A stretch of DNA of 64,000 bases from Verrucomicrobiia bacterium (GTDB lineage Bacteria > Verrucomicrobiota > Verrucomicrobiia > Limisphaerales > UBA1319). Under the pieces are notes generated by a model. The model did not search any database. It was given only the letters and a program-made list of their open reading frames with translations, and was not told the DNA's origin. The stretch lies in assembly GCA_963664225.1 (NCBI GenBank), contig OY760937.1, positions 4,160,001-4,224,000 on the forward strand, given 5' to 3'. Of this stretch, positions 8,152 through 43,246 are shown in pieces (within the stretch, counting starts at the first letter, position 1; each line of letters begins with the position of its first letter). The position numbers and the translations under genes were made by a program.

Positions 8152-10518
8152 TCACCGGACGATTAGCGCATCCACAGCCACCGGCCCGGGACCGCGATTG
8201 ACGATGTTAATGGCGTGTTTGCCTGACACCAGGCCGGTCACTTCGCACACTGCCTGCCGGGCCTGGCGCGCGCCGATAATGGACAAATCCACCGTTGCGC
8301 GCGTTTGGCCGTCAATCTGAATTTCGATTTTTCCGGCTCCGGGTTCTTTCGGGGCGATGACTGAGACACTGCTGCCGGTGAATGAACAGCTCCAAACCAC
8401 GCCGGGGGTGTCACTTGTCGTGATGTCATTGTTGAAGTCGCCGGCGCCCAGGTTGCAGCGGCGAAGCCAGCCGGGCGCCACTGCGCCTGGGTCATCGTCA
8501 TTGAGCCAGCCTTTGTCATGCGTGATGCGCAAGACGCGGCAGGCGGAAGCCAGCGATTGATTGGTGATGCCCGCCAGCGGCTGCGGCGTTCCGCCGGGCG
8601 CCACGGTCAAACCTTGATCATTTTGCACAAACGACAGCGGGACATCGGAACCGAGGAGTTCGACTTTCGACACTTGGCCCAATGTCGCCCCGCCGGCACG
8701 CAGGGCTTTGAGCGTGATCGGGCCGTTGGTCCAATTCATCAAGGCGGCATAGACGTTGCCGTTGTTGCGCGTGTAACAGATGGCATTGGCCTCTTCCTGA
8801 CAGACTTCAAATGGACGCGAACCATAGACCGCTTCGCCGTTGATTTTCAACCAGGCACCGATGTCTTTGGCAATTTGAATCACCTGTGGATCCAGATCGC
8901 CGCGGCCATGCTGGGTGAGGTTGAGCAAGAGCGTGCCGTTGCGCGAAACGTTCTGCATCAACAAACCGATTATTTTTTTCGCGTCCATGTATCGTTGCCC
9001 GGCCTTGTAGTGCCAGTCGGCGACGGTGGTTTCGGTCTGGAATGAATAGGGCATAATTTCCGGCTCGATGTCGGACTCGCTGCTCTTGACCAGGGCGCGT
9101 TCCACGAAGGGAATCAGTTCGGGGCTGTTTTTAAAGCTGTTGTAACGCCCACCGATGCACTTGAGGTTGATCACAACATCCAACTTCCCAGGCTTCCACT
9201 TCAAGGATTGGTTGTAGTAGTTTGCGACGAGCGGCGGAGCGAGAAAACCCAGCCCCATCTTGACACCCAAATCCAGCAGGGTGTCGCCCCCAGCCTCGTC
9301 AAAATAGATCGCGTCGGGATGATATTTGGAGATCGCGTCATCCACGCGCCACATAAATTGATTGGCGAAGGGCGAGAACAAGGGGTCCTTGTTGTTGTGA
9401 ACCGGCCCGTAAAGGTCCACCGGATCCATGCCCTCCCACCACGTGCCTTTTCCGTCGCGGATCGTTAGGAGCGCATCGTAGGGCACGCCTTTTTTTTGGC
9501 CTTTTTTGTCGCTGGTGTAACGCACCGGCATGAATTGGCCCCACGTCCGGGGCGGAGAGGCGTGAAAGCCGATGCCAAACCGGATTCCCTTCTGGCGCGC
9601 GGCCTTTTCCCATGTGCCGATGACATCCACCTTGGGGCCGACGCGGACGGAGTTCCAGGGTTGATAGGCTGAATCCCAGCAATCGAAGTTGTCGTGGTGA
9701 ACGCCCATCGCCATGAAATAACGGGCTCCCATTTCGGTGTAAAGGTTCATCAACTCGTTTGGATTCCAGCGGTCAATGACCCAGTTGTGGCAAATGTCCT
9801 TGTAACCGTATTCCGATGGATGGCCGAAGTTTTTGACGTGATAATTATACTGTGGATGGCCCTCCTGATACATGCCGCGCGAATACCAATCGCCATACTC
9901 GGGCATGGACTGCGGGTCCCAATGGGCCCACGCGCCAAACTTGGCCTCGCGCCACCACTCCGGCACGGTGTAACTCCGGCTGATCGCCTTCCAGTCGGGT
10001 GAATAAGGACCGGCGGCCACCGGCAAAGGCGGCAGGTTCCAAATATCCGGCGGCAACCCCAAATCTCCGTTGCCGACGATGATGCGATCAATGTTCACCG
10101 CGACATCGTTGGTCGCCAGACGGATGGTCAGCGTGGCCCTGGCGGGAATCGCCAGTTCAATGATTGCATTGAGAAAAGAATTGGTGAGAGCCCCGGAGGA
10201 ATGAACATTCACCTTGCGCGCCGGTTGGTCGTTGACTGCGACGCTGATCGTCCCCACCTCCACCGACGCATAGCGAATCGCCAATTTGCTGGCAGCCGGC
10301 AGGCGGGTGAACTTGAGGCCCTGGCCGGGTTTGCACAAACCGACCAAAGAAGCTCCGGAGGCTCCGAGGTCGGCCACCTTGGACGCCCCAGCGACACGTT
10401 TGGCGGCTTCCGCCTCGATCATGTGCTTGTCGGCAGCGACGGCAGAAACGGAAGCGGAAAGTAAAAATAAGGATGCAACAACAAGAAACCGCAGGTCATG
10501 GAACAATTTGCAGCGCAT
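8152..10518 (-). CDS. Alpha-L-fucosidase (GH29) with accessory beta-sandwich domains
   Basis: PEWWREAKFGAWAHW, HHDNFDCWDS, IYFD (nucleophile), VSRNGTLLLN and WLKINGEAVYGSRP motifs; signal peptide after M at 10518. Confidence 0.88.
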   Translation of the reverse strand: MRCKLFHDLRFLVVASLFLLSASVSAVAADKHMIEAEAAKRVAGASKVADLGASGASLVGLCKPGQGLKFTRLPAASKLAIRYASVEVGTISVAVNDQPARKVNVHSSGALTNSFLNAIIELAIPARATLTIRLATNDVAVNIDRIIVGNGDLGLPPDIWNLPPLPVAAGPYSPDWKAISRSYTVPEWWREAKFGAWAHWDPQSMPEYGDWYSRGMYQEGHPQYNYHVKNFGHPSEYGYKDICHNWVIDRWNPNELMNLYTEMGARYFMAMGVHHDNFDCWDSAYQPWNSVRVGPKVDVIGTWEKAARQKGIRFGIGFHASPPRTWGQFMPVRYTSDKKGQKKGVPYDALLTIRDGKGTWWEGMDPVDLYGPVHNNKDPLFSPFANQFMWRVDDAISKYHPDAIYFDEAGGDTLLDLGVKMGLGFLAPPLVANYYNQSLKWKPGKLDVVINLKCIGGRYNSFKNSPELIPFVERALVKSSESDIEPEIMPYSFQTETTVADWHYKAGQRYMDAKKIIGLLMQNVSRNGTLLLNLTQHGRGDLDPQVIQIAKDIGAWLKINGEAVYGSRPFEVCQEEANAICYTRNNGNVYAALMNWTNGPITLKALRAGGATLGQVSKVELLGSDVPLSFVQNDQGLTVAPGGTPQPLAGITNQSLASACRVLRITHDKGWLNDDDPGAVAPGWLRRCNLGAGDFNNDITTSDTPGVVWSCSFTGSSVSVIAPKEPGAGKIEIQIDGQTRATVDLSIIGARQARQAVCEVTGLVSGKHAINIVNRGPGPVAVDALIVR

Positions 10519-10524
10519 GAAGAC

Positions 10525-10553
10525 ATTTTGCCAATCGGGTGATCGGTTGTCAA
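10525..10553 (-). promoter_or_regulatory. sigma70 promoter, probably leaderless
   Basis: Minus strand TTGACA-N17-CAAAAT, then 6 nt to ATG 10518. Confidence 0.6.
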
Positions 10554-10670
10554 AATTGATATTCCAGAGGCGCGAAAGCCGCAAAAAAGCAAAAAATCGC
10601 CGGATGGGTCAATACTTGCAGTAGGCAAACGGCATGGACCCCACCCTTACACTGGGACCAATCGAACCAA

Positions 10671-11567
10671 TCATTTCCCGCGGGACGAAATGGTTAATCC
10701 GCCGCCTGATGGGGCGTCGTTTTCGAGGCGTCGCAATAATTCCTGGACGATTTCCTGGAAGACAGGTCTTTTACGCATCACCTCGGGCGGTTCGTCCGGG
10801 CGGGGCACATCGAGAGTTTCCACCAGGCGACCCGGGTTGGCCGCCATGCGGAAGACGCGGTCGCCCAGATAGACGGCTTCCTCGACGGAATGGGTGACAA
10901 TGAAGACGGTGGATTCCTGCTCCTTCCAGAGTTGGACGAGCAGTTCCTGCATGTTGAGGCGGATCTTGGGGTCCAGCGCGCCGAAAGGTTCGTCCATCAA
11001 CAAAATCTTGGGGCCAAGAATGAGGGTGGCCGCAATGGAGACGCGCTGCTGCATTCCGCCGGAAAGCTCGGATGGATATTTGGATTCCGCGCCTTCGAGG
11101 CCGACCTTCTTCACCCATTCGTGGGCGCGATCCGTGCGTTCGCGGCGTCCCATGCCACGGAGCATCAGGCCGAAGGCAATGTTCTCCAGCACGGTGAGGT
11201 GGGGCATGAGCGAGTATTTCTGGTCCACCATTCCACGCTCGGAACTGGGGCTTACAATAGGTTTGCCAAATGCGATGATTTCGCCGGTTGTTTGCGGAAA
11301 ATGAGGTGTCAGGGCCGCGAGCATTCGCAGGAGGGTGGATTTCCCGCAGCCTGAAGGCCCGACGATGGCGATGAGTTCGCCGACATTGGGCAGGTCGTGA
11401 ATGACGAAGGAGATGTCCTGCAACGCAACTTTCGCCTGGTTGCCTTCGCCGAATTTCTTGGTCACGTTTTTGAATACGACCAATTCAGGCAGCCCGGTTT
11501 TAGACGACACAGCGGGATCTGTCGGGCCAGTTGAATCGGGCTTGGTTTCGGATGCGGGGGTGTCCAT
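10671..11567 (-). CDS. ABC ATP-binding protein, NitT/TauT (TauB/SsuB-like)
   Basis: Walker A GPSGCGKST, signature LSGGMQQR, Walker B LLMDEPFGALD and VTH switch. Confidence 0.92.
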   Translation of the reverse strand: MDTPASETKPDSTGPTDPAVSSKTGLPELVVFKNVTKKFGEGNQAKVALQDISFVIHDLPNVGELIAIVGPSGCGKSTLLRMLAALTPHFPQTTGEIIAFGKPIVSPSSERGMVDQKYSLMPHLTVLENIAFGLMLRGMGRRERTDRAHEWVKKVGLEGAESKYPSELSGGMQQRVSIAATLILGPKILLMDEPFGALDPKIRLNMQELLVQLWKEQESTVFIVTHSVEEAVYLGDRVFRMAANPGRLVETLDVPRPDEPPEVMRKRPVFQEIVQELLRRLENDAPSGGGLTISSRGK

Positions 11568-11572
11568 GCGGT

Positions 11573-12433
11573 TCAGTTGACGTAACGATAGGGGAACAGA
11601 ATCCGGCCGCCGAGCTTCCACAATTGGTCGCAGGCGACGGCGATGGCGACGATGACGATGATGATGGCAAACATGGAGGCCGTGTGGCCTCGGCGTTCGG
11701 AGATGGAGATGAGATAGCCCAGGCCTTGCTCGGCATTGACCACTTCAGCCAGGATGATCCAGCCCCAACCCACGCCGTACACCCCGCGCAAATGATCCCA
11801 GATATCCGCCTTGGCCACCGGAAACAAGACGTGGCGAACGATCTGCCATTGCGAGGCGCCCTTGGTCACGGCCACATCGATATAGGCGGACGGAACGTCC
11901 GTGATGGTCTTGATGACCAGGGGCAGGAGCGCGACAAAACAGCCGATGAACAGGAACCCAACCTTCTGGGTTTCGGTCAGCCCGAACCAAGCGAGAGTCA
12001 AAGGGACGAATACGACGATCGGCACATAGGAGCCAATGAGCGCGAGCGGACGGAAGAAGGCCGACATGGGAGGAAAGGTGGCCATGTAAACGCCCAATGG
12101 GACCGCAACGATGGCCGCCAGCGTGAAGCCCGTGGTCACGCGCATGAACGAGATCAAGGCGCTACGGACCAAAGCCTGCTCAAAGTGCAGCCGGGGAAAA
12201 GCCGCCAACACCTCGACCGGGCTGGGAAGAATGAGCGGCATGACGATCCGGTCCTCCATGCGCTCGCCACGCGTTACAAACCACCACGCCAGCATCATGA
12301 CTCCAACAAAGGCCGCTGTCAGGGCCAGGCCGCGCGTTTCGGGCAGCGTTTTGCGCACGTTCAGACCGCCGAAGCGCACCACGGCGGTCAGAAGTGTGAC
12401 AAAAACCACCGCAAAGATGAAAAACCCCGTCAT
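11573..12433 (-). CDS. ABC permease, TauC/SsuC-like
   Basis: Multiple TM helices, ILPSPVEV, EAA-like loop YIDVAVTKGASQWQI and AEVVNAEQGLGY. Confidence 0.9.
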   Translation of the reverse strand: MTGFFIFAVVFVTLLTAVVRFGGLNVRKTLPETRGLALTAAFVGVMMLAWWFVTRGERMEDRIVMPLILPSPVEVLAAFPRLHFEQALVRSALISFMRVTTGFTLAAIVAVPLGVYMATFPPMSAFFRPLALIGSYVPIVVFVPLTLAWFGLTETQKVGFLFIGCFVALLPLVIKTITDVPSAYIDVAVTKGASQWQIVRHVLFPVAKADIWDHLRGVYGVGWGWIILAEVVNAEQGLGYLISISERRGHTASMFAIIIVIVAIAVACDQLWKLGGRILFPYRYVN

Positions 12434-14202
12434 TATTCTTTCTCCAAGGGGAAGACTTTGACTTCAACACGGCGGTTTTTGCGGTTGTGATCCACATTGC
12501 TGGGATCGGTCATGCCCGGTAGCGGATTATCCCAACCATTGCCGATGACCTTGAATTTATTCGGGTCGAATTTGTATTTGGCGATGATGGCTTTCCGCAC
12601 GGAATCCGCGCGATCATAGGAGAGTTGACGCACGAGGTCGGCGGGAACCACGCCCTTGCGGCTGGCGTCGGTGTTGCCTTCGACCACAACGTAGGCGTTG
12701 CCGAACGAACCGGCCATCTTGCTGATTTCCTCCAGGGTGGCGGGAATCGTGGCATCATACTCCGCATTGAGCGTCGATTTGTTTGGCTCGAAGGAAATGA
12801 TGACGGCCTTGGTCAGGATTTCGCTGGAATCGGCTTCCGCCGTCTTGAACAAGGCGCCCGGCTTGAAGGTTGGCTGTGAGAGATCGCGAGTCTCCTTGTA
12901 TTCCTCGGACATTTTGGCCAGAACGCCCGCCGCCTTGACCTTCGCCGCTTGAGCCGGGACGTCGATTGCGCCGAGGGATTTGTAGATCGTCGAAGCCCGG
13001 TTCCAGACCACTTCGAAATTGGCCGGGTTCATCGGGTCCAGGAAGAAATTGGAATTCTCCCGGTAATTGGCCAGATGGGCGTCGCCTTCGCTGATACCGC
13101 CGTCCTTGCCGATCATGTTCTGGCAATCCTCGACGGGCAGTTTATAGGCGGCGGACAGGATGCGGGCTGCGCCTGGAACGTCTTTGCGGACCATGTCCAT
13201 GCCTTCGAAAATACCGCGCACCAGGTTGGCCGCGATATCAGGGTGATCCCGGTAGAAATCGTTGCGCAAGGCCCAGACGTCCGCGATCAAATGATTGGCC
13301 GCCGCAGTGCTGACCACGAGGCGGGTTCCGGTTACCTGCTCGGACACGGTGTAAATGTCCGGGGACCAACCAACAAAGGCGTCAAACGAGGTGTCCTGAA
13401 CAAAGATTTTTGCCGCAGCCGGAGCGTCCCCCGCCCATTTGAAATCGACCTGCGCGGGATCGATCCCCGCGTCGATGAGTAGGGACATGATCAGGTAATG
13501 GCTGGGTGAGTTTTGAGCCAGAACCACTTTGCGGCGCTTGCCATCCTTCATGCGAAAATCGTTGATGCTCCGAATATCGCCACGGGCCACAATACCGTCA
13601 CCACCAGACGACCAGTCCACCTGCTGGCAAATGACGGGGACGGTGCGGGAGTCCTTGACCAGTTCGGGCGCGAAGAGGGCCATCATATCGAGTGTGCCCC
13701 AGAGGACATGGCTGTGACCGCTGGCGAAGAGGTCACGGGCCTTGACCGGATCATCGACCAGCGAAAGCTTCACGTAGAAGCCATATTTCTTGAAAAAGAT
13801 GCTTCCTTCGTTGGGCTCCATACCGTTGTTGGCGACGATGATCGGCGCCCAACCCGGCCAGACGTTGATTGGAAATTGAACGATGAGTTTGCCATCTTTC
13901 ATCGGCTTGTCGTAATCGCTGACGCCGCTGACCGATGGAATGGCGGAACCATCGACCAGGGAGACCGCCTTGTCGCCGGCCAGCAACTTGCTGGTGACGT
14001 CGGTGGCGGGTTTGGCCGGCTGCCCGGCTGAGGGCGCGCCTGTCGGTTTGTTGGCGTCCAGGGCCTGTTTAATTGCCGCCGTGTCGAGGGACGGATTGGA
14101 GGATTTGCCGGTGGGGGCGATTTTATCCCACCAACGATAGGTGCCGAATCCGGCCACAGCCAGGATCAACAGCGTTAATACGATTTTTCCGCGAGCAGTC
14201 AT
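12433..14202 (-). CDS. NMT1/SsuA-like solute-binding protein fused to a C-terminal OmpA-like peptidoglycan-binding domain
   Basis: N-terminal TM anchor; WPGWAP, DWSSGGDGIVA and IADV SBP motifs; C-terminal FEPNKSTL, VEGNTD, LSYDRA and NRRVEV OmpA motifs. Confidence 0.85.
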   Translation of the reverse strand: MTARGKIVLTLLILAVAGFGTYRWWDKIAPTGKSSNPSLDTAAIKQALDANKPTGAPSAGQPAKPATDVTSKLLAGDKAVSLVDGSAIPSVSGVSDYDKPMKDGKLIVQFPINVWPGWAPIIVANNGMEPNEGSIFFKKYGFYVKLSLVDDPVKARDLFASGHSHVLWGTLDMMALFAPELVKDSRTVPVICQQVDWSSGGDGIVARGDIRSINDFRMKDGKRRKVVLAQNSPSHYLIMSLLIDAGIDPAQVDFKWAGDAPAAAKIFVQDTSFDAFVGWSPDIYTVSEQVTGTRLVVSTAAANHLIADVWALRNDFYRDHPDIAANLVRGIFEGMDMVRKDVPGAARILSAAYKLPVEDCQNMIGKDGGISEGDAHLANYRENSNFFLDPMNPANFEVVWNRASTIYKSLGAIDVPAQAAKVKAAGVLAKMSEEYKETRDLSQPTFKPGALFKTAEADSSEILTKAVIISFEPNKSTLNAEYDATIPATLEEISKMAGSFGNAYVVVEGNTDASRKGVVPADLVRQLSYDRADSVRKAIIAKYKFDPNKFKVIGNGWDNPLPGMTDPSNVDHNRKNRRVEVKVFPLEKE

Positions 14203-14265
14203 AATTCTAGTCCTTTCAAGTACGGCTTCAAGGGTTCTGGGATCAACGGCGCAAAAGGGTCTGGC

Positions 14266-15027
14266 TCATTTCTCGGCGATTTTCTGGCGATCCTCCTTGG
14301 GAGGCGCGGCAACAGCCGGGGCGGCATCGGCCTGAACCATGCCCATCTTTTTCTTGTATTCCTGGAACAACATCGCGCCCCGGGCCTTGCGCATGTCCTG
14401 CTGGCGTTGGACGTTGGAGCCCATTTCCTTGGCCAGGTCCAGCGTCGCGCGCATCTGGCCTTCACCCGCCGCTGCGGATTGCCTGAGCTGCTGCATGGAT
14501 TGGCCCAATTCGCCACCCATCATGCCCTGCAATTCCGTGATGGAGCCCTTCATCAGGCTGGCCAGGTTTTCGAGCGAACGGCCCACAGCCACGCGGACTT
14601 TGACCTGCTCGAAATCGCGCTGGAATTTCTGAATTTCGCGCAAACTCTGGGCGATGATCTGGGTGTTCTGCTGGTAAAGCTCTTCAAGGCTGTTGAGCTG
14701 GGACTTGTTGTCTTCCAAGTCCTTCTCCACATCGGAGAGTTGCTCGGCGTAATGCGCACCGTTGGCATCGTCATTGGCCGCCGCCGCCGCCTGGACCAGA
14801 CCCTGCAAGTCCTCACGTCCTCGCTCCTGGCGTTTGACCTGGTCCTTGAGCAGGGCGATCTGGCCGGCCAGTTGGCCATTGGCGTAATGGGCCTTGTCGG
14901 CCTTGGCCTTGGCATCGCGAATGCCCCGTTCCACCACGGCCTGATTGATCGCGTCGGTTTCGGTGGCTTTTTCGGCAGCCAGCCCCATCCAGATGAACAG
15001 CCGTTTGATGGCTCTAAAGATACCCAT
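14266..15027 (-). CDS. PspA/IM30 (Vipp1, ESCRT-III superfamily)-like protein
   Basis: Amphipathic N-terminus MGIFRAIKRLF, long coiled coil with AAAAANDDANGAHYA turn, 253 aa, terminal helix then Ala/Pro tail. Confidence 0.75.
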   Translation of the reverse strand: MGIFRAIKRLFIWMGLAAEKATETDAINQAVVERGIRDAKAKADKAHYANGQLAGQIALLKDQVKRQERGREDLQGLVQAAAAANDDANGAHYAEQLSDVEKDLEDNKSQLNSLEELYQQNTQIIAQSLREIQKFQRDFEQVKVRVAVGRSLENLASLMKGSITELQGMMGGELGQSMQQLRQSAAAGEGQMRATLDLAKEMGSNVQRQQDMRKARGAMLFQEYKKKMGMVQADAAPAVAAPPKEDRQKIAEK

Positions 15028-15039
15028 ATTCGTCGATTG

Positions 15040-15795
15040 TTAGTTGGTTGTTGATTTTGCGGGGGCCGCTTTGGCCGGAGGTTCCTCCTCTTCGAGTAGA
15101 ATCTTCTTTTCGAAAATGTAGGTCAACTGCGATTCAAGCTGGGTTGCATTGGAGGCGCTGACCACAGTGGCCCCCTGTTTCTTAAGGGGATTAAACACGG
15201 CGGCGTCCACGTCAAAAGCGATGACATGGGTCTGAAACGCGGTATTGGCGCTTTCTGCGGCGGTTTTAAGTTTGGGCAGCACGGCATCGGGACTTGGTCC
15301 GGTGGTATTCATGCCATCGGTGACAATGAGGACATGTTTGTGCGTCAGCGGTGATCGAATGAGGGTTTGTGCGGCCAGGCTTAGGGAATTGCCCAGGGGG
15401 GTATTGCCATCGGGACCTTTGTACTGGGTGATCCAATCGCGAAATGGCTGCGGATTGAATGGGCCAAAGGGGACCGCAAATTTGGGAGTTCCTTGATTGA
15501 AGACAATCAGGCCGGCGTTAACTTTTCGAGGGGCGCCTTCAGAAGCCGCTTTCTGGTAGGCCTCCAACCGGTTCAGGATTTTACCCAGCGCCCGATTGGC
15601 GATGATGTACTTTGGAGCTGCCTGGCCATTTTGGTCCCGGACAGTTTCACGCATGCTTCCAGAGGTATCGCAAACGATGACCAGGGAAACACCTTCCTGC
15701 GGGGCGGGCTGGTCGGCGGCAAAGGAGGCCATTGCGCATGTCAAGCCTAGCAATGCGGCTAAAAGCGCTCCCGGCCTTGAGTTGGTTGGATTCAT
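15040..15795 (-). CDS. Secreted von Willebrand factor A domain protein
   Basis: Signal peptide; MIDAS elements DTSGS, GNTPLG and IVTDG. Confidence 0.88.
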   Translation of the reverse strand: MNPTNSRPGALLAALLGLTCAMASFAADQPAPQEGVSLVIVCDTSGSMRETVRDQNGQAAPKYIIANRALGKILNRLEAYQKAASEGAPRKVNAGLIVFNQGTPKFAVPFGPFNPQPFRDWITQYKGPDGNTPLGNSLSLAAQTLIRSPLTHKHVLIVTDGMNTTGPSPDAVLPKLKTAAESANTAFQTHVIAFDVDAAVFNPLKKQGATVVSASNATQLESQLTYIFEKKILLEEEEPPAKAAPAKSTTN

Positions 15796-15821
15796 ATCTT
15801 AGCTTGTGCAAGACTAACCAT

Positions 15822-15851
15822 AGTTTAGCAGTTTAAAACCTTCACTGTCAA
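15822..15851 (-). promoter_or_regulatory. sigma70 promoter of the vWA-PspA-ABC operon
   Basis: Minus strand TTGACA-N18-TAAACT with extended -10 TG, followed by an imperfect inverted repeat at 15799-15817. Confidence 0.55.
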
Positions 15852-16239
15852 ACAATAACCCAGTCCCAATCCGGTAATTCGGAGAGGGTCTGCTTGAACT
15901 AATATAAACCAGCCGAACAGATTGGCCTTTATAAAAACCTCTCCTGTTTATACCTGCATCGATCAAAAGCCGGTTTGAAGATATGGCTTGCCGGGATGTC
16001 AGCAAGATTTGCAAAGCGTTGACGACTGTCCAAAACCCAAGCCGCATAAAAAATGATGCCAAATGTGTTTTGTGCTGGAAATCCATGCGGCGGTGGATTA
16101 TAGATACCCGGGTTCCCCAGCGGTTACCGGACGGTTCATAGGCAAGAGCGGATATGGAAGATGGACACGGCGTCTTGCGGCGGGCGCGCGGTCCGGAACT
16201 CGCGGGAAATAGCATGTAAAACAACCAACCGAGCTGATT

Positions 16240-16758
16240 ATGGATATAACATTCAACTGCCCCAATTGCAAACAAGAGATGTTGGTGGACGCCGAGGACG
16301 TGGGACGCGAGGTGGAGTGTCCATCCTGCGGGGCGAGTATCACCATTCCCGGAGAGGAAGCTGCGGAAGCACGGCCAGCGGCCGAGGCTCCAGTAGAGCA
16401 GCAGCCTTCAGCCGTGCATCCCGTCAATGCAATGGCCTCTTCTGCCGCAGCCAAGGAATCCAAGCATTATGCGGTGCCAGCGCATGATGCGCCGACCGAG
16501 GTGCTCATCAGCAAGCCGAATAAGCCGCTGGAAGTCGCGGCCAAAGAGACGGATAAGAAATTAAGAATCCGGACCATCCGGCGCACGGATTGCGTGGAAG
16601 TAGGGAAGGATCTGTTCGATCAAAGGGTCTCTGACTTTCTGCAACAAGTGGGTGAGACCAATGTGGTCAGCATCAATTCCATTGCCTATACCCACGTGGA
16701 TTTGGGATCCCATCAGTTAATGACGGATTTCGGCGTCATGATTGTTTTTAAGGGGTAA
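16240..16758 (+). CDS. Zinc-ribbon domain protein
   Basis: N-terminal CPNC...CPSC, low-complexity linker and an ordered-looking C-terminal domain. Confidence 0.75.
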   Translation: MDITFNCPNCKQEMLVDAEDVGREVECPSCGASITIPGEEAAEARPAAEAPVEQQPSAVHPVNAMASSAAAKESKHYAVPAHDAPTEVLISKPNKPLEVAAKETDKKLRIRTIRRTDCVEVGKDLFDQRVSDFLQQVGETNVVSINSIAYTHVDLGSHQLMTDFGVMIVFKG

Positions 16759-16788
16759 ATCGCCCCAGACAACAAAGATCCAACTATT

Positions 16789-17709
16789 TTGGCGGGCGCG
16801 AGTTCGAAAAATAACGTTGCGGCGCCGTTGGCGTGGATCAGGCGAACTTGCGAGTCACGCATCAGTAATTCAAAGCCATATTTGAAAGCCAAAGGTTTAA
16901 CCTCATCGGAAAAAGCCCCGATCCCTCTGGGTCAACCTGATGCGCTGCGTCTTGAGACAGGCGATGGAGTGCGAACGATTGAGATGTCGGGCGTCCTGGT
17001 TTCGCGCATGATTCATGAACTGACCAATCACCTGACCGTGGTGGCGGGCAATCTGCAGGTGGTGGAAATGGCGCCTGAGGATCCAGACCTTGTCCGCAAG
17101 GCGCTGGAATCGGTGCGTCTGGCGAGTGTGGGCATGACGGAGGTCGTGGAACGTTACGCCGGTTTTCGCCGACAGCTTCGGAACGACTCCCTGGGATGCG
17201 ATCCGTCTGATTTTGCAAATCTGGTCATGAAAGGACCGCCGCCAGAGCCTTTTCAGGCGACGGGGCAAAACGCCGGGAGCGAATGGTGGGCGGACTGGAA
17301 GGTAACGGCTCCAACCCCCATGCAAGGATGGCTGCCCATTGAAGCGCGGTGGATTAACCATGCGATCTGGCGTGTGGCCGCTCTGAGCGGATCACCCAGC
17401 GGCGAAATCCGGTTTTTCCCGCCCGGCAGCAACCCGGACTTGCAGGGGGTAAGCACTTTAACAACCGGAAACCGGTTGGGGAATTTCCTGCACATCTCTA
17501 TTTCCTGGAAGGGAGATAAGTCGTCTTTGGACCGCCAGGAATTGCATAAGCCCAGCACCCTTGCCCTGGCGGTGGTCATCGGGCTGGTGAGATGGGTCGA
17601 TGGCCAGGTCGGCGTGGTGTTCCTGCCGCCCGACGAAAATCGATTCTGGATATTTCTGCCCATGGAACGTCGCAAGGATCCCACGACTGATGGAAGAAAG
17701 ACGGCGTAG
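16789..17709 (+). CDS. Histidine kinase-like protein with HisKA H-box and degenerate ATPase domain (true start may be 16882 or 16984)
   Basis: SRMIHELTNHLTVVAGNLQ H-box; C-terminal LALAVVIGLV...GQV...FWIFLP matches the end of a HATPase fold without the glycine boxes. Confidence 0.6.
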   Translation: MAGASSKNNVAAPLAWIRRTCESRISNSKPYLKAKGLTSSEKAPIPLGQPDALRLETGDGVRTIEMSGVLVSRMIHELTNHLTVVAGNLQVVEMAPEDPDLVRKALESVRLASVGMTEVVERYAGFRRQLRNDSLGCDPSDFANLVMKGPPPEPFQATGQNAGSEWWADWKVTAPTPMQGWLPIEARWINHAIWRVAALSGSPSGEIRFFPPGSNPDLQGVSTLTTGNRLGNFLHISISWKGDKSSLDRQELHKPSTLALAVVIGLVRWVDGQVGVVFLPPDENRFWIFLPMERRKDPTTDGRKTA

Positions 17710-17981
17710 GGGCTGATCAGGCAGGCATTGCAGAGACAACAAAGGCGGTTTCGATGATTTGCGGGTCCATTGTTGTGCACGGTCCCGTTAGTCTTGAAGC
17801 GGTATGAGACTTTTAATGGCTGCCAATCCGGAGCGTTAATTTCCACTTCAATCATGGTTTCACGTTCCATGAGGCGTCGCTTTCCCAGAGATCGATCCAC
17901 TCTGAGCCAATGGAGTCCGTCGCATATTTTCGACGCCAATACTTGCCGTCCGGCCATGCGACGTGTCAACATGGGTCTGAA

Positions 17982-19154
17982 GTGCGGGAAACATTGCGAG
18001 CATGGAATGAAGCATTGGAAACGTTTGTTCTGGCGGTCATTTTCGACCAGCGCCGGGGCAAACGGGCGGCGCTTGTGCGTGTGCTTCTGCTGGTCCTCTC
18101 GAATGTCTTCGCGGTGGCGGTCAAGGCGCGCCGATTCCTTTACAACATGCGAATTTTGAGGGATTCCACGCTGGGCGTGCAGGTCATCGCCATTGGCAAC
18201 CTCACGGTGGGCGGGACGGGTAAGACACCTGTGGTGGAAAAATTCGCGCGAGAATTGCAGGACCAGGGCCGCACTGTGGCCATTTTATCCCGTGGCTATC
18301 GCTCCAAGCCGCCGCCCTTTACGAAACGTCTGATCAATAAACTGTTGTTGCGGGAGGACATCACACCGCCGCGCATTGTGTCGGACGGTAAATCGCTTTT
18401 GCTGGATTCCGAAACCGCCGGGGATGAGCCCTACATGCTGGCCTCGAACCTGAAGGACGTGGTGGTGCTGGTGGACAAGGACCGCGTCAAGAGCGGACGT
18501 TATGCCATCGAAAAATACGGATGCGACACCCTTCTGCTCGACGATGGTTTCCAGTATTGGAAGCTGCGCGGGCGTCGTCGGGATATTGTTCTGATCGATT
18601 GCCAGCAGCCTTTCGGCAACGAGTTCCTGCTTCCTCGCGGCACACTGCGGGAGCCGCCTTCCCACCTGGCCCGGGCGAGCACCATTTTCATCACCAAGAG
18701 CACTGGGGACACCACGGAGTTGCGCAAGCGCATCGAGGCCTTGAATTCCACAGCCAAGATCATCGAGTGCATCCATCACCCGCTCTATTTTGAGGACCTG
18801 TTCACTGGCCAGCGCCATGGCATGGAATTTCTCAAAGGCCGCAGGGTCGCCTCTCTGAGCGGCATTGCGCAGCCGGAAAGTTTTGAGGAAAGCCTCATTA
18901 AATTCGGGGCCGAGCTGGTGTATTCGAAACGGTTTGCCGATCACCATCGTTTCAGTCAGCAGGAGGTGTTGAATGTGATCAACCGCAGTAAAAAGCGCCA
19001 GGCTGAAGTCATCATCACCACCCAGAAGGATGCGGTGCGTTTTCCGAAGATCGACCGCCGGGACCTGCCCATTTATTTCATGCGTGTGGAAATCAAGATC
19101 ATCAGCGGCGCGAGCAATTTCCAGGATTGCGTGCGCCAAATCTGCTTTCGATAG
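17982..19154 (+). CDS. lpxK: Tetraacyldisaccharide 4'-kinase
   Basis: [44 protein letters not shown] and TQKDAVR motifs; GTG start at 17982 chosen. Confidence 0.95.
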
Positions 19155-19156
19155 AC

Positions 19157-20086
19157 ATGTCATACCTCGTTTATTTATTGGTGCGCGCGCTGCTGTGGCT
19201 TTTGCGATTGCTGCCTTTGCGGGCCATCGCACGCGTGGGGCGGGCGGGTGGCGCGCTGGCCTATGCGTTGGATCGCAGGCATCGGCGCGTGGCGGTGGAT
19301 AACCTGACGCAATGCTTTGGGGATTCGAAAACGCAGGAGGAAATCAAGGCGCTGGCGCGCGAAAACTTCAAGCGCATCGGCGAGAATTTTGCCGCAGCCG
19401 TGAAAACCTCCTCGATGAACGAGGCGGCCATTCGTGAATGCGTGGAACTGGTGGGCGCGGAGCACGTTTTGCCTGCCGCGAATGAAGGGCAGGCCAAAGG
19501 CAGGATCATCGCCATCGGCCACTTTGGAAATTTCGAACTCTACGCCCGGTGCAATTATTTTGTTCCCGGTTTGCAGTTTGCCACCACGTATCGCGGGATC
19601 AACCAGCCGTTGTTGAACCGCATTCTGCAGGACCTGCGCAATCAATCCGGCTGCCTCTATTTCGAGCGCCGCAGCGAGGGGGGCGCGTTGAGGCATGCCC
19701 TGCAAAATCAGGGTGTCATGCTCGGCCTGCTGGTGGACCAACACGCCGGAGATCACGGATTGCGCGTGCCGTTTTTTGGCCGGGATTGTTCGACCAGTCC
19801 TGCCCCCGGCATCTATGCCCAGCGCTATCACCTGCCGCTGCATGTTGCCATTTGCTATCGGGTCGGCCTGGGCCGCTGGCGTATTGAAATGGGCGAGGAG
19901 ATACCGACATTCGAGGCGGGCGAGCCGCGTTCGTCCGAAGCTGTGGCCGCAGATATCAACAAGGCCTATGAAGCCGCGATTCGTCGCGATCCGGCCAATT
20001 GGTTTTGGGTGCATCGTCGCTGGAAGGCGACGCACTATCGCGCGAAATCCACCGCGTCGGAAACCGCCCATCCCACGCCGGGTTGA
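19157..20086 (+). CDS. Lipid A late acyltransferase (LpxL/HtrB family)
   Basis: GHFGNFE, LLVDQ, VPFFG and PANWFWVHRRWK motifs. Confidence 0.9.
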   Translation: MSYLVYLLVRALLWLLRLLPLRAIARVGRAGGALAYALDRRHRRVAVDNLTQCFGDSKTQEEIKALARENFKRIGENFAAAVKTSSMNEAAIRECVELVGAEHVLPAANEGQAKGRIIAIGHFGNFELYARCNYFVPGLQFATTYRGINQPLLNRILQDLRNQSGCLYFERRSEGGALRHALQNQGVMLGLLVDQHAGDHGLRVPFFGRDCSTSPAPGIYAQRYHLPLHVAICYRVGLGRWRIEMGEEIPTFEAGEPRSSEAVAADINKAYEAAIRRDPANWFWVHRRWKATHYRAKSTASETAHPTPG

Positions 20087-36875: not shown

Positions 36876-37862
36876 ATGATGAAAACATGTAAAACTCGAA
36901 TTGGTATGATTATAAACAAGCGGTTCCTCATGGGGCTTTCCCTTGCGGTTGCCGCGATGTACCTGAGTAATGAGGTGGATGCGGTGCAATCGCCGGTGAA
37001 CCTTGGAACGGCAGGCAATTTTGCGATTCTGGCAAAATCAGGAATCTCAACAGTTCCTAATTCCGCGATTACTGGAGATATTGGAGTTAGTCCGATTGGC
37101 GCGACTGGCGTCACTGGATTTTCACTAATCCTTACCGCATCCAGTCCATTTGCGACCTCAACGCAGGTTACCGGAAAAGTTTACACGCCGGATTATGCGG
37201 ATCCAACCCCATCCAGGCTGACCACGGCCATTGGCGATATGCAAACCGCATTTACGGACGCCGCCGGACGAACCACGCCTGATTTCATCGAGTTGGGATC
37301 GGGTGAGATTGGCGGGCGAACGCTTGTGCCCGGTCTATACAAGTGGGGCACGGATGTCATGATATCATCGGATGTCACTCTAAACGGTGGACCTAACGAT
37401 GTCTGGGTATTCCAAATATCAGGCGGTATAACCGTCGCAAACGGTAAGAAAGTCATTCTTTCGGGCGGTGCGCAGGCCAAGAACATCTTTTGGCAGTCCT
37501 TCGGTGTTGTCTCCATTGGAACAACCGCTCACTTTGAGGGGATTGTCCTTTCTCAAACATCCATCAGCGTTGGCACTGGCGCATCGGTGAATGGCCGACT
37601 GCTGGCACAAACTGCGGTGACTCTTAATGCGAGTAACGTTACGGCTCCAACAGCAGCAGTTGCATCTCTCATATTGCAATCATCGGAATCCGTCACGGGT
37701 CCGTTCACGGACGCGGCGGGTCAGACCCTGAATCTTGCGACAAAGACAATATCAGCCCCTGCATCGGGTAATATGCATTATTACCGTATTCGTTCAGGAA
37801 CAGCTCTAAACATTGCAAGCATCACCATCTCAGGTGGCAATGTGGTAATAATCTACAATTAA
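36876..37862 (+). CDS. Ice-binding protein (DUF3494/IBP-1 family), secreted
   Basis: VNLGTAGNFAILAKSGIST, ITGDIGVSP, AIGDMQTAFTDAAGR, TLVPGLYKW, VWVFQI, GGAQAKNIFWQ and GRLLAQTAVTL motifs. Confidence 0.93.
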   Translation: MMKTCKTRIGMIINKRFLMGLSLAVAAMYLSNEVDAVQSPVNLGTAGNFAILAKSGISTVPNSAITGDIGVSPIGATGVTGFSLILTASSPFATSTQVTGKVYTPDYADPTPSRLTTAIGDMQTAFTDAAGRTTPDFIELGSGEIGGRTLVPGLYKWGTDVMISSDVTLNGGPNDVWVFQISGGITVANGKKVILSGGAQAKNIFWQSFGVVSIGTTAHFEGIVLSQTSISVGTGASVNGRLLAQTAVTLNASNVTAPTAAVASLILQSSESVTGPFTDAAGQTLNLATKTISAPASGNMHYYRIRSGTALNIASITISGGNVVIIYN

Positions 37863-39611: not shown

Positions 39612-40286
39612 TCACAGACTCTCGATGCTTCGCACATACTTCGAGAAGCGCGTCAGGCGGAAGGGGAACTTCCCGGCAATCTCCGCTGCATCATCCGCAT
39701 CCGTGGGATCGTATTTTAATTCCAAAACCATCCCGGGATTTGCTGAGTGCATGGGACGCAATGGAACGCTTGAATGCCGGGCGTCCATGGATTCAATCCG
39801 CCAATCGACCGTGAGCCGCACTTTGCGGTCGCCACTGCAAAAATAGCGTCGGCGGTAACGGTTCGCGACCCAGGGCACATGCTCGCGCATTTGGTAGCGC
39901 ACCATGGCGGGCAAAGCGCCCAGTGCCTTCTCAAACTGCGCGCGGTCGAATTCGCCGTCGAGGTCCAAAGCGGGCAGGGGATAAGTCACCTTTCGTCCCA
40001 CGGCGCCATGGCGAATCTTGAACTCCAGCGCGGGATGTTCATTCTCCCCGTGGAAATCTCCATACCAGCGCACGCGGATTTTCACACGGTTGGCCGCGCC
40101 GTTCACGTGGTCCGTATAATGGCGCAGATCCTGGGTATCGAAGTAGAGATTATTCACGCAGCGCTCAGGATAGACTTCACGAAAAAGTGCCGGATGGCGG
40201 CGCACCAGCCCCAGTAATGATTCCTGGGTGAATCCGTCGGGAACGAACTTTCGCTCGTAGCGCAGTAATGGAATTTTGTTCATCAT
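39612..40286 (-). CDS. VTC (polyphosphate polymerase, CYTH-like) domain protein
   Basis: RYERKF, NLYFDT, KIRVRWYG, LEFKIR, VRLTVD, VLELKY and FSKY motifs. Confidence 0.85.
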   Translation of the reverse strand: MMNKIPLLRYERKFVPDGFTQESLLGLVRRHPALFREVYPERCVNNLYFDTQDLRHYTDHVNGAANRVKIRVRWYGDFHGENEHPALEFKIRHGAVGRKVTYPLPALDLDGEFDRAQFEKALGALPAMVRYQMREHVPWVANRYRRRYFCSGDRKVRLTVDWRIESMDARHSSVPLRPMHSANPGMVLELKYDPTDADDAAEIAGKFPFRLTRFSKYVRSIESL

Positions 40287-40297
40287 CTCAAGACCTC

Positions 40298-40984
40298 TCA
40301 CAAGGCCAGACCGCGCTCCTCCAGATAGCTCACCGTGACCTGACCATTCAACTCGCGCAGCGACCGGTTGAAATCCTCCATCTGGTTGACCCCTTCAAAA
40401 TCCACAAGGAAGGAGGCCTCCAATCTGTCCGGCGTTTCGTCCAAACGCTTCAGGCTCGCCTTGGCGCCGGATTCCTTGAACGCTTCGAGTATTTGTCCGG
40501 CGGTGACCTTGTCAGGCCCAGGACTGCTCACGGTGAGATAGAGGTTGGGCTGCGCGGGAGTGCGGCGGAAAAAGTGTTGCACCCCCACAATCAGAAGGAT
40601 GATCGCACAGGCGGCGCAGGTGATCAGCGTCTGATCAGCGCCAAGGCCCAGGCCAATGCTGATGGCCAGAAACAGGTAGGCCAGTTCCTCAGGCTCCTTG
40701 ATGGCGGCACGAAAGCGGACGATCGAGAGCGCGCCCACGAGGCCCAGCGAAAGCGCCAGCGAAGATTTTACGATGCTGATGATCAAGGTGGTGGTCAGCG
40801 TGAGCAAAAGGAAATTCCGCGCAAAGGCCCTGCGATTCGACAGCGCATGACCAAACCGGATGTAAGCCTGGCCGACCAGAAACGCCATTACGGCGGCCAA
40901 TACGAGATTAAGGGCGAAACCTGGAAGCGCGGTGGTTGTGCCCATGGTCCAGAATTGATTCATGGTTAATGAGTTTGTTTGCAT
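40298..40984 (-). CDS. DUF4956 membrane protein
   Basis: SLALSLGLVGALSIVRFRAAIKEP and YLFLAISIGLGLG motifs; ACT-like C-terminus. Confidence 0.88.
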   Translation of the reverse strand: MQTNSLTMNQFWTMGTTTALPGFALNLVLAAVMAFLVGQAYIRFGHALSNRRAFARNFLLLTLTTTLIISIVKSSLALSLGLVGALSIVRFRAAIKEPEELAYLFLAISIGLGLGADQTLITCAACAIILLIVGVQHFFRRTPAQPNLYLTVSSPGPDKVTAGQILEAFKESGAKASLKRLDETPDRLEASFLVDFEGVNQMEDFNRSLRELNGQVTVSYLEERGLAL

Positions 40985-41041
40985 GCGTGCGTTATTGTGA
41001 TTTTGTAATTACTCGGCGGCTATACATCCCGGGCCTCACCA

Positions 41042-42847
41042 TTAAAAAGGCATTTCTTCCATTGGCGGTCCGAAATCCTGGTCATCATCGGGACCACCCG
41101 GCATGCCACCTCCGGGAGGGGGTCCGCCTCCTGGAGGTCCACCACCGGGCGGCCCGAAACCTCCGCGCTCGATGATCATTCCCGTGGATTTGCCGGCCAG
41201 TTGTTCAGCTACAGAGGCGGCGCGTTTCGTGATAAAGAGCTTGGTTTGACTGGGCGTTCCCCCGAATGGGCCAAAGCCTCTGAAGGGGTTGTTATCGTTT
41301 GAATCGGCGGGAATTGGCTTATCGGAAACCGCCTGCTCGAACCGCTTGAGTCTTGCCTCAGATTCCTCTTTTACAGTGGGGCGGACCAGCCCGGCGATTT
41401 GATCCAATTGGCGTTGCACCTTTTCAGGCTGATACACGGTATCAAGGAATTGGCGATGGTAGCCCAAATAGAGTGATTTAAATTTTTCGAAGGCGAGCAT
41501 GCGTTCCAATAATTTATTTTTCCCCACATAAGGATGAACCAGACTGAGGTTGATGCGCCCTTCAGCAGATCCGATCATGGGGAAATCGCCGAAGGAGTGG
41601 TCCAGGTCCCACGGCATGAACTTGAACTTGTTCGAAACCGGATGGAGATAGATATAGTAGTTCTGTCCCTGTGCCAGAATGCTGTCCATGGTGGAGAGAT
41701 AAACGGTGACGGCCAGGAAACGCGCGAATTCGTCCAAGTCCAGGAAATCCCCAATCCTGGCCTGAAACGTCGCATCATCGGCGCTCGAAACCAGTTTCGC
41801 CATCTCGATTACCCGGCGCTGCTGTTCCGGGTAGGCGCGCGTCTTGGGATCATAAATCCCCGCGTAGGCCGACCAGTCTTCGCCCAGATACTCAAAGAGT
41901 TTGGGCGTCACGGGTTTCATGATCAACCCCTGCTTCAGGCCAAAGCGTGAAATGGCATACATTGCATCCACGTTTTCCACCATGACATAGAGGCCCAGAA
42001 GCTGGTGATCGTATTTGCCGGGGACAGTGAGATAAATTTTCGCGTGGGCGGTTCGAGGGGATGGCACACCGGCTTCGCGAAACAGTTGATACGACAAGGT
42101 ATCGCTCACGCAGGATGGATCGGCCACCAAATTGCCGAAGTTCAGCTTCGTGACTCCCAGCAAATTCTGGCCACGAACGTTCTTGTCCAAATCGATCTTC
42201 AAGGGGCGTTTTAATTGTCGCTGGGATCCCATATAAGTGCCGTTGCCCTTGTAACGAACTGCGACGTTTTCAAACTTCAGCCCATCGAATTCCAGGTCGG
42301 CTTTGGCCCACACAAAATCGATCCCCAACATGCCTGCCAGGCCATTGCGTTTTGCGTTGGGATTGCGGAGCGTCATTCCCCCTCCATCATCCCCGCCGGG
42401 AGGGCCTCCGCGCTGTGGACCACCCATCTGACCGCCGGGACCGCCCACCATCGGCCCACTGGGTCCATTCGTTGAACTGCGCATTGGATTACCCGGTCCC
42501 GCCATGGGACCCCCAAAACCGCCGGGACGACCAGGTCCACCCATTGGACCACTCATTGACCCACCCATTGGTCCGCCCGGGCCTCCGGGACCGCCAAATC
42601 CTCCAAAACCGCCTTGAATACGTTTGGGTTCCATGGCCGCCCATTGCTCGGCGGTGAATATTAAATGAACATTCCAGACATTGGTTTCCTGGAATAAGGG
42701 CGCCGCTGCTGCCGCCAGGGCCAATTGCCGGCCGCCAGCCTGCGATATTCCAGGAAACAATAGCTCCACCAGCAGAACGAAACATACGCTCTGCCACAGG
42801 CGGCACGACCGTCCCGCCATCCCTGACCTTTGGAAAGGGTGGATCAT
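41042..42847 (-). CDS. CotH-family kinase, secreted, with Gly/Pro/Met-rich insertions
   Basis: VRYKGNGT, KRPLKIDLD, GLYVMVENVD, NYYIY and PWDLDHSFG motifs; start uncertain (42847 chosen). Confidence 0.88.
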   Translation of the reverse strand: MIHPFQRSGMAGRSCRLWQSVCFVLLVELLFPGISQAGGRQLALAAAAAPLFQETNVWNVHLIFTAEQWAAMEPKRIQGGFGGFGGPGGPGGPMGGSMSGPMGGPGRPGGFGGPMAGPGNPMRSSTNGPSGPMVGGPGGQMGGPQRGGPPGGDDGGGMTLRNPNAKRNGLAGMLGIDFVWAKADLEFDGLKFENVAVRYKGNGTYMGSQRQLKRPLKIDLDKNVRGQNLLGVTKLNFGNLVADPSCVSDTLSYQLFREAGVPSPRTAHAKIYLTVPGKYDHQLLGLYVMVENVDAMYAISRFGLKQGLIMKPVTPKLFEYLGEDWSAYAGIYDPKTRAYPEQQRRVIEMAKLVSSADDATFQARIGDFLDLDEFARFLAVTVYLSTMDSILAQGQNYYIYLHPVSNKFKFMPWDLDHSFGDFPMIGSAEGRINLSLVHPYVGKNKLLERMLAFEKFKSLYLGYHRQFLDTVYQPEKVQRQLDQIAGLVRPTVKEESEARLKRFEQAVSDKPIPADSNDNNPFRGFGPFGGTPSQTKLFITKRAASVAEQLAGKSTGMIIERGGFGPPGGGPPGGGPPPGGGMPGGPDDDQDFGPPMEEMPF

Positions 42848-42851
42848 GCCG

Positions 42852-42883
42852 TTAGTGACCCCCCAGGTGGCATTCAGGTTACA
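42852..42883 (-). promoter_or_regulatory. Candidate ECF-sigma promoter of the CotH operon
   Basis: Minus strand TGTAAC-N17-GGTCACTAA just upstream of ATG 42847. Confidence 0.3.
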
Positions 42884-43246
42884 AACAGGTGACCTTTTTT
42901 TGTGAGCGGGGTATTGCAGCGGTCCATCTCCAGCGCCAATGGCCTGCTGTGTGCAACCTGTTGACCGGGCCGATGGCCATTTGATGCACATGGACGTGTT
43001 TTAGGGCGAGAGTTGAAGATCGTCGCACCTGACGACCTCAAGGCCCGCCACACACTTGCCGAACGCGACGCAGTGTGAATCGCTGAGAGCGAGATTCAGA
43101 CTGAAGGGGGCAACGCGCGAGTCCAACTGCCGCGCTGGTCTGCGGGTGTCGAGGAGTTGACGCCGTGAAAGGGCATTCGTGATTGCCATGTGCCTTCACT
43201 GGTTCCGCAATAGCGGCCTTCTGGCGAAAGCGTGATTTGAACAGGT

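Follow-up and report, generated by a model that had tools for sequence, protein, structure and literature searches.

We analyzed a 64,000-nucleotide (nt) stretch of the chromosome of a Verrucomicrobiia bacterium, most likely of the Pedosphaera/Limisphaerales kind (contig OY760937.1, hereafter the window), and found that five genes on its minus strand, at 10671–15795, are a conserved unit. In this unit, a PspA-like gene is almost obligatorily paired with a gene encoding a substrate-binding protein (SBP) fused to an OmpA-like domain (SBP-OmpA). The PspA-like protein is co-transcribed with SBP-OmpA, a TauBC-type permease and ATPase, and a periplasmic von Willebrand factor A (vWA) protein carrying a metal ion-dependent adhesion site (MIDAS). 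The vWA protein and most of SBP-OmpA lie outside the cytoplasm, and the PspA-like protein and the ATPase lie inside. We regard the window operon as a representative of a conserved envelope module that is self-contained and whose function we infer.

The five co-oriented open reading frames (ORFs), all on the minus strand, encode the vWA protein (15040–15795, 251 amino acids, aa), the PspA-like protein (14266–15027, 253 aa), SBP-OmpA (12433–14202, 589 aa), the permease (11573–12433, 286 aa) and the ATPase (10671–11567, 298 aa). From vWA to ATPase, their coordinates give gaps of 12 nt and 63 nt, a 1-nt overlap between the start of the permease gene and the stop of the SBP-OmpA gene, and a gap of 5 nt. 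These are the spacings that a sequence-only reading of the window had reported. The open frame of the ATPase gene reaches a GTG at 11621; we placed its start at the ATG at 11567 because relatives align from residues 1–3 of the ATG version. The genes had also been placed behind a single sigma70-type promoter. A consensus scan does find a sigma-70-like site, TTGACA-18-TAAACT (15822–15851, minus strand, 10/12 matches), about 25 nt upstream of the vWA start. Since six such sites were found in 10000–16800 compared to 3.1 ± 1.6 in shuffled sequences, the site alone is weak and at most suggestive evidence for that promoter. The 63-nt gap between the PspA and SBP-OmpA genes shows no RNA structure above that of shuffles (z 0.79), and a tRNA was the sole match of an Rfam scan of the window.

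The coiled-coil protein had been read as PspA/Vipp1-like, which our analysis supports. Compared to the Pfam family PspA_IM30 (PF04012), the window protein scored 20.8 bits over residues 29–156 (E 3.1e-4), below the cut-off of 33.9. We found 115 of its relatives among 1.84 billion cluster representatives and built from them a 30-row family alignment (profile A1), in which 20 of the 30 members match PF04012 (E up to 0.01; best 3.7e-44). Searched against PDB chains, profile A1 matched 8qbv (1.5e-14), 6zvr (9.2e-14), 7o3w (8.7e-11) and E. coli PspA 4whe (7.7e-4). Its alignment to Vipp1/PspA spans residues 1–198 and begins at the N-terminal amphipathic helix. The AlphaFold2 (AF2) model of the protein (pLDDT 80.3) has helices at 3–21, 25–83, 87–168 and 174–227, in which an amphipathic helix at the N-terminus precedes a long helical hairpin and additional helices. 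The top six Foldseek matches of this model were all Vipp1 (probability 1.00, template-modeling score TMt 0.53–0.60, best E 1.5e-3). On the basis of profile and model, we accept the protein as a divergent member of the PspA/Vipp1 family (ESCRT-III superfamily). A phmmer match to Hsp70 among PDB chains (E 0.12) was at chance level and was discarded.

Relatives of PspA and of SBP-OmpA each number in the thousands; the best 120 of each are 78–95% identical, and the named ones among them belong to Verrucomicrobiota/Pedosphaera. To compare loci, related genomes were scanned with an alignment of the nine closer PspA rows, keeping one genome per species. This gave 190 species-level genomes with a PspA relative, of which the best 80 loci were analyzed (Verrucomicrobiota metagenome-assembled genomes, MAGs; PspA 74–87% identical); all locus counts below refer to these 80. 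Neighbors were assigned by tblastn with family representatives, requiring at least 40% identity, the same strand and a distance within 9 kb. SBP-OmpA adjoins PspA, in the order PspA then SBP-OmpA, in 75 of the 79 evaluable loci. It is absent from five of the 80, one of them not evaluable. The linkage on which the sequence-only reading had built is therefore conserved, and it is also found in phages, as described below.

Two types of loci were distinguished. Type A loci (36) resemble the window, with an SBP-OmpA 70–85% identical to that of the window, and those that could be evaluated carry the permease (25/25) and the ATPase (24/25). Type B loci (39) have a full-length SBP-OmpA that is 25–30% identical, and none of them carries the permease or the ATPase (0/39); tandem SBP-OmpA copies are present in 5 of 25 evaluable type B loci. 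In 48 of the 72 loci evaluable for it, the gene immediately upstream of PspA is a vWA gene (28/32 for type A, 20/35 for type B). Recurrence of the same gene order in the related type A genomes means that the five-gene arrangement is not due to chance. In a quick PspA tree, from which L042 and L072 were dropped for stop codons, types A and B were clustered but interleaved, and we draw no order of events from it. Five loci (L066, L070, L037, L071 and L051) carry approximately 80%-identical verrucomicrobial versions of the genes on contigs titled as Bifidobacterium, Akkermansia muciniphila or Haliangiales MAGs; these titles are probably binning or labeling errors.

The AF2 model of SBP-OmpA (pLDDT 76) shows five segments, all encoded on the minus strand. 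An N-terminal tail and transmembrane (TM) anchor (residues 1–28, nt 14119–14202; model TM helix at 3–23) is followed by a first linker, disordered over residues 29–67, and by a class II SBP domain of the TauA/SsuA fold (about residues 96–440, nt 12883–13917). A second disordered linker (residues 443–464) then leads to the OmpA-like domain (residues 467–585, nt 12448–12804). According to Foldseek, the solved folds nearest to the SBP domain are TauA (6ssy, 1.1e-13) and also SsuA, CmpA/NrtA and ThiY. In NCBIfam, the protein matched ABC_peri_uca (4e-12) and SsuA_fam (1.5e-8), both under their cut-offs. The OmpA-like domain matched Pfam PF00691 (6.3e-10, 39.7 bits, cut-off 27.2) and the fold of 3td5 (Foldseek, TMt 0.79, 28% identity). 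In 33 sequences of this domain, G509, R525, S528 and R531 do not vary, and the conservation of D512 is 90% or higher; the conserved Asp and Arg presumably bind wall peptide. Family match and fold predict a domain of the kind that binds peptidoglycan.

We then compared SBP-OmpA between types A and B, segment by segment. Identity was 0.63 for the 28-residue anchor, 0.28 for the SBP domain, 0.33 for the OmpA-like domain and 0.14 for the linker. Within each type the SBP domain was strongly conserved (identity 0.79 and 0.68). The anchor has the consensus MTxRGKxVLTLLILGVVGFGxxRWWDK, in which T2, G5, K6, T10, L14, G20 and W24 are invariant, and the T-x-x-G-K/TM pattern is also present in the homologues of Bacillus phage G and of the phage record LR756501. 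That the anchor is the best-conserved part between types is unexpected for a mere membrane anchor and points to a specific contact that it may make in or at the membrane.

Of the remaining three proteins, the vWA protein matched Pfam VWA_2 (1.2e-10, 42.4 bits, cut-off 27) and VWA (1.6e-7) and has an N-terminal signal peptide. Its DTSGS sequence (residues 43–47, nt 15655–15669, minus strand), which we take to be the MIDAS, is read in the translation together with T132 and D160. The residues D43, S45, S47, T132 and D160 are invariant in 23/23 aligned relatives. Its C-terminal KILLE is conserved, and some relatives have a lipobox cysteine. The permease matched Pfam BPD_transp_1 (2e-17) and, in NCBIfam, SaoP (2.4e-30, 105.9 bits, cut-off 295) and TauC (1.3e-25), both under their cut-offs. 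The ATPase matched Pfam ABC_tran (1.6e-30), and its best NCBIfam match was the TauB equivalog (1e-61, 208.6 compared to a cut-off of 357). Its translation contains GPSGCGKST, LSGGMQQR and ILLMDEPF, which we take to be the Walker A, signature and Walker B motifs. As read from the sequence earlier, the ATPase motifs and the MIDAS are thus intact and the vWA protein is extracytoplasmic with a metal-site motif. All the parts of a type I ATP-binding cassette (ABC) importer of the NitT/TauT kind are present, namely a BPD_transp_1 permease, an ATPase with the full set of motifs and a class II SBP of the TauA/SsuA/NrtA fold. Since all NCBIfam equivalog cut-offs were missed, no substrate can be assigned to the ABC system.

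Most relatives carry two further downstream genes, which the sequence-only reading had overlooked. The product of the first, roughly 319 aa long, combines an N-terminal TM hairpin with a coiled coil, and that of the second is a classical AAA+ protein of roughly 602 aa (examples are L030 14466–15422 and L020 15813–17621). The pair occurs in 21 of the 23 type A loci that could be fully evaluated and in 16 of 25 of type B. It follows the ABC ATPase or, in type B, SBP-OmpA (L002, L005, L016, L020, L027, L030 and others). The AAA+ protein matched Pfam AAA (8.8e-18) with VCP/Cdc48/AFG2 as the nearest PDB chains, its N-terminal half being non-matching. The TM coiled-coil protein had no PDB match by profile and no match to Pfam Snf7, and hhalign detected no similarity to the PspA family (probability 0.6%). 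Its designation as Snf7 is taken solely from Ravi et al. (2024, mSystems, PMC11237479), an ESCRT-III nature being unconfirmed by these searches. The two proteins are the more obvious candidate partners of PspA. Some loci have an additional gene for a 186-aa membrane protein inserted (e.g., L045 6328–6888). Using tblastn with the relatives' representatives, we found neither the TM coiled-coil gene nor the AAA+ gene in the 64-kb window.

PspA itself ends in a conserved peptide. In the window protein it is DRQKIAEK (nt 14269–14292), with the family consensus (E/D)RQKI(A/S)E placed behind a variable Ala/Pro/Thr linker. This peptide is kept in 77 of the 80 loci, with or without a nearby AAA+ gene. 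Its conservation suggests a putative binding motif. ESCRT-III proteins bind Vps4 via C-terminal motifs, and the position of the PspA peptide recalls, by analogy, these Vps4-binding motifs.

Homologues of SBP-OmpA were also detected in 21 phage records, comprising Bacillus phage G, 15 Lak megaphages and huge uncultured phages, at 24–27% identity over residues 107–583. The fusion protein of the window matched PHROG 25518 (8e-40), and two NMT1+OmpA protein clusters of the Atlas are more than 50% viral. Gene content was determined for 4 of the 21 records. Bacillus phage G (L081, 171533–178618) has the permease gp243, the ATPase gp245, the PspA-like gp247 and two SBP-OmpA proteins, gp249 and gp250; comparison of gp247 with the PspA family by hhalign gave 96.2% (E 2.4e-9). 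Lak-B4 (L083) carries PspA-like, SBP-OmpA, permease and ATPase genes in the order of the window. LR756511 (L084) has these four and a vWA gene (Pfam 3.1e-13), and LR756501 (L082) has SBP-OmpA, permease and ATPase genes. A tblastn search of the phage collection with the window PspA-like protein gave no match; the phage PspA-like genes emerged only via a family hidden Markov model and hhalign. The PspA-like proteins of phage G and Lak have N-terminal TM segments. None of the four phage loci contains the TM coiled-coil or AAA+ genes. As the gene content of the window recurs in phages without this pair, the window copy need not be decayed.

Taking these results together, we tentatively propose that SBP-OmpA is a wall-referenced sensor or anchor for a PspA polymer, acting through protein contacts that we infer. 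SBP-OmpA would be fixed to the inner membrane by its N-terminal helix and to the wall by its OmpA-like domain, via two flexible linkers. As the envelope-facing part, it may report how far the membrane is from the wall, or the presence of a ligand in the periplasm. The signal would be relayed through the conserved T-x-x-G-K/TM anchor to membrane partners. The partner in type A loci would be the ABC permease/ATPase, and in most relatives the TM coiled-coil protein is a further candidate. The output would be a PspA polymer positioned or activated at the cytoplasmic face, protecting or reshaping the membrane there. The metal site of the vWA protein would serve to bind a partner in the periplasm. 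Recycling of the polymer would, in most relatives, fall to the classical AAA+ ATPase, whose gene is absent from the window and the four phage loci. The binding protein is probably more than a transporter receptor, because 39 of the 80 loci keep PspA and SBP-OmpA without ABC genes and the anchor is 63% identical between types compared to 28% for the SBP domain. The same ABC-less loci, with their divergent SBP-OmpA and 0/39 permease/ATPase, weaken the earlier proposal that the ABC transporter is the central sensor.

Several observations weigh against this proposal. The window PspA-like protein falls below Pfam's PspA cut-off, and as a single sequence it found no relative among PDB chains with phmmer. 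Nine distant rows in profile A1, including some canonical PspA sequences, help its PDB match; a search with the window protein had retrieved these rows at E 1e-8 to 5.5e-4. No Foldseek match of the PspA-like model reached E 1e-3 or below. The window is without the TM coiled-coil/AAA+ genes that 21/23 type A loci have, so that its copy may be incomplete, or these genes may be elsewhere in the genome. The nearest genome locus, L003 (PspA 87% identical), is without the TM coiled-coil and AAA+ genes and also without the ATPase. These losses indicate that the operon has been eroded or rearranged in that sub-lineage. In L003 (12668–14214), the permease gene is followed by a convergent gene that looks methyltransferase-like. 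In LR756501, one of the four phage loci, no PspA-like gene was detectable within 10 kb, and two ORFs lying ahead of its SBP-OmpA gene do not resemble PspA. Finally, the permease, the ATPase and the SBP are ordinary in fold and motifs and about 70–85% conserved among type A loci, which fits a working importer as well as a sensor.

This last point leads to a first alternative, which we consider possible but on the unlikely side. The operon could encode an ordinary TauABC-like importer of a small anion or zwitterion (of the sulfonate, taurine, nitrate, bicarbonate or pyrimidine class), in which the OmpA-like domain keeps the SBP near the wall and PspA is co-transcribed to buffer membrane stress, without a physical or signaling link. 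The intact importer parts, their standard fold and their high conservation among type A loci would agree with this. So would the phage copies, as phages often carry nutrient-uptake genes and the PHROG families of the ATPase are labeled "moron, auxiliary metabolic gene and host takeover". Such an importer, however, does not account for the 39 loci in which SBP-OmpA remains beside PspA without permease or ATPase, nor for an anchor that is the best-conserved part of SBP-OmpA across types; these two results weaken it. The linkage to PspA moreover recurs from Verrucomicrobiota to phages of Bacillus and Prevotella. Nor were any sulfonate or taurine catabolic genes found among the called genes of the window, and no NCBIfam equivalog cut-off was reached that would allow a substrate to be assigned. 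The ABC-less loci can also be explained if SBP-OmpA is a passive staple that, like a MotB/Pal-type anchor, simply ties the inner membrane to the wall. PspA would scaffold the membrane at that place, the SBP fold would be structural and the ABC genes the add-on of one sub-clade. Besides the absence of ABC genes from type B loci (0/39), the TM anchor, the OmpA-like domain with its conserved wall-binding residues and the tandem SBP-OmpA copies (5/25 evaluable type B loci and phage G) are in line with a staple. We nevertheless judge it distinctly unlikely: conservation of the SBP domain within types points to a retained ligand or partner site, and a matching permease and ATPase accompany SBP-OmpA in type A (permease 25/25, ATPase 24/25) and in all four phage loci.

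The phage homologues raise two further possibilities. The chromosomal operon could serve a phage-related function, such as anti-phage defense or superinfection exclusion, or be the relic of a huge prophage. Homologous modules do occur in huge phages and the two NMT1+OmpA clusters are mostly viral, but we find this explanation very improbable. PADLOC 2.0 gave no family for the vWA, PspA, SBP-OmpA and permease proteins and only generic ATPase matches for the ATPase. The operon has housekeeping neighbors and an even G+C level around it, no phage structural genes were seen in the window, and the phage proteins are just 24–27% identical, compared to close relatives in 190 bacterial genomes. A bolder extension of our proposal, which we regard as rather doubtful, is that the five genes form the smallest self-sufficient version of a mobile ESCRT-III-based envelope module common to Verrucomicrobiota and the largest phages (phage G, Lak and phages of 595–735 kb). 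The wall-stapled SBP, with its conserved T-x-x-G-K/TM anchor, and the ABC motor would then turn a periplasmic signal into PspA polymerization at the cytoplasmic side, with the vWA protein as periplasmic adaptor. That signal would be a ligand or the membrane-to-wall distance, e.g., during plasmolysis or a long phage infection. If true, this would be a wall-referenced, ATP-driven recruitment of a bacterial ESCRT-III protein, unrelated to PspBC or LiaI.

The module described here bears on the recruitment of bacterial ESCRT-III proteins (PspA, Vipp1) to the membrane in organisms other than the E. coli and Bacillus models. It is widespread and unusually conserved, and it offers three candidate partners of PspA: a wall-anchored SBP, an ABC motor and, in most relatives, an AAA+ protein. 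Phage G grows on Bacillus megaterium, and the phage G and Lak copies provide a tractable route to the module. Their presence suggests that giant phages, too, use this tool to manage the envelope of their host. According to the available part of a 2025 review (PMC7619361), a Vps4-like ATPase is apparently absent from bacteria.

Outside the operon, the window is ordinary chromosome, with genes for L25, Pth, S6, SSB, L9, PRPP synthetase, LpxK and ScpAB and an even G+C level throughout. The product of the downstream neighbor (8152–10584, minus strand) is a secreted alpha-L-fucosidase of family GH29 (2.3e-73) that includes a C-terminal fucosidase domain. A separate promoter-like site (10553–10525) precedes the likely ATG start of this gene at 10518, which places the end of the operon at the ATPase gene. 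This gene sits where relatives carry the TM coiled-coil and AAA+ genes. On the other side, a divergent gene (16240–16758, plus strand) encodes a 172-aa protein with an N-terminal zinc-ribbon-like CxxC pair and a weak DUF7560 match, and envelope biogenesis genes for LpxK and a lipid A acyltransferase (17910–20086, plus strand) lie just upstream of the operon. About 35 kb from the operon, 49908–50969 (minus strand) encodes a 353-aa Toastrack (DUF4097) protein (1e-15); Toastrack is listed as a recurrent PSP-associated partner in the available part of Ravi et al. (2024). A three-gene cluster (39612–42991, minus strand) encodes a CotH kinase-like protein (649 aa), a DUF4956 membrane protein and a VTC-domain protein, a trio that suggests polyphosphate-related chemistry. 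The window also encodes an ice-binding-like protein (36876–37862, plus strand, 7e-75), a BspA-type leucine-rich-repeat protein of 1042 aa (58850–61978, plus strand, 5.5e-175) and a Gp49/HigB-like toxin-family protein (44093–44494, minus strand).

We finally compared the module with known systems. With the classical Psp systems (E. coli pspF-pspABCDE; B. subtilis liaIH) it shares the PspA/ESCRT-III-type effector, which requires a membrane partner to reach the membrane (review PMC7619361, available part). In contrast to these systems, and as already stated in the sequence-only reading, the 51 proteins called in the window (5 + 46; ORFs of at least 60 aa, judged by E-value) yielded no member of the PspB, PspC, PspF or LiaI families. 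The PspA belongs to a divergent clade below the Pfam cut-off, and the proteins proposed as its partners are the wall-anchored SBP and the ABC transporter. Vipp1/IM30 and Synechocystis PspA, with solved polymers (6zvr, 8qbr, 7abk), have the same helical hairpin, and the profile alignment includes the N-terminal amphipathic helix. Compared to them, the window protein is 9–17% identical in fold alignments and has its own conserved C-terminal peptide. TauABC/SsuABC (NitT/TauT) are alike in the SBP fold, the TauC-like permease and the TauB-like ATPase. The window differs in that its SBP is TM-anchored and OmpA-fused, the system has PspA and vWA, and not desulfonation genes, as linked neighbors, and no equivalog cut-off is reached.

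In huge phages, complete ABC systems beside 15 pspA genes have been described in a preprint (bioRxiv 10.64898/2026.10.24.761521, available part). Huge-phage loci such as phage G gp243–gp250 resemble the window in having a PspA-like gene beside SBP-OmpA, permease and ATPase genes, with a vWA gene in LR756511. The phage versions differ from the window in their 24–27% identity and varying gene order, and the OmpA fusion is unmentioned in the available part of the preprint.

The closest likeness is to an operon listed by Ravi et al. (2024; as far as the available part of this source goes), with the order PspA > PBPb+OmpA > permease > ABC-ATPase > TM-Snf7 > inactive and classical AAA+, exemplified by OGG56892.1 from Candidatus Handelsmanbacteria. 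That study describes PspA and a divergent, TM-anchored Snf7 along with an AAA+ ATPase of two domains, and it suggests that membrane remodeling and solute transport are linked. The PspA, signal/TM-anchored PBPb+OmpA, TM permease and ABC ATPase of this operon stand in the same order as in the window. Most verrucomicrobial relatives also share its two downstream genes, which the window lacks. The window differs further in its leading vWA gene ("vWA" occurs 0 times in the available text and one supplement file of Ravi et al.), and that study presents a genomic association without an experiment. The system is thus not undescribed, as had been supposed: of the earlier interpretation, the identity of PspA and the conserved unit stand, the novelty does not, and the central place of the ABC transporter is weakened. 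We found no experimental work on the module in the literature searched, whose coverage leaves out most subscription journals. In that literature, part of which was available as partial text, we also did not find vWA as the usual first gene with an invariant MIDAS, or the roughly half of relatives that have a 25–30% identical SBP-OmpA and no ABC genes. The same holds for the TM coiled-coil and AAA+ genes being present in most relatives and absent from the window, and for the anchor as the best-conserved part of SBP-OmpA. It also holds for SBP-OmpA with ABC genes in phage G, one Lak and two other huge phages, three of the four with a PspA-like gene. The module is a described, uncharacterized genomic association, and the window locus is a further member of it, with vWA as its first gene and without the Snf7/AAA+ pair.

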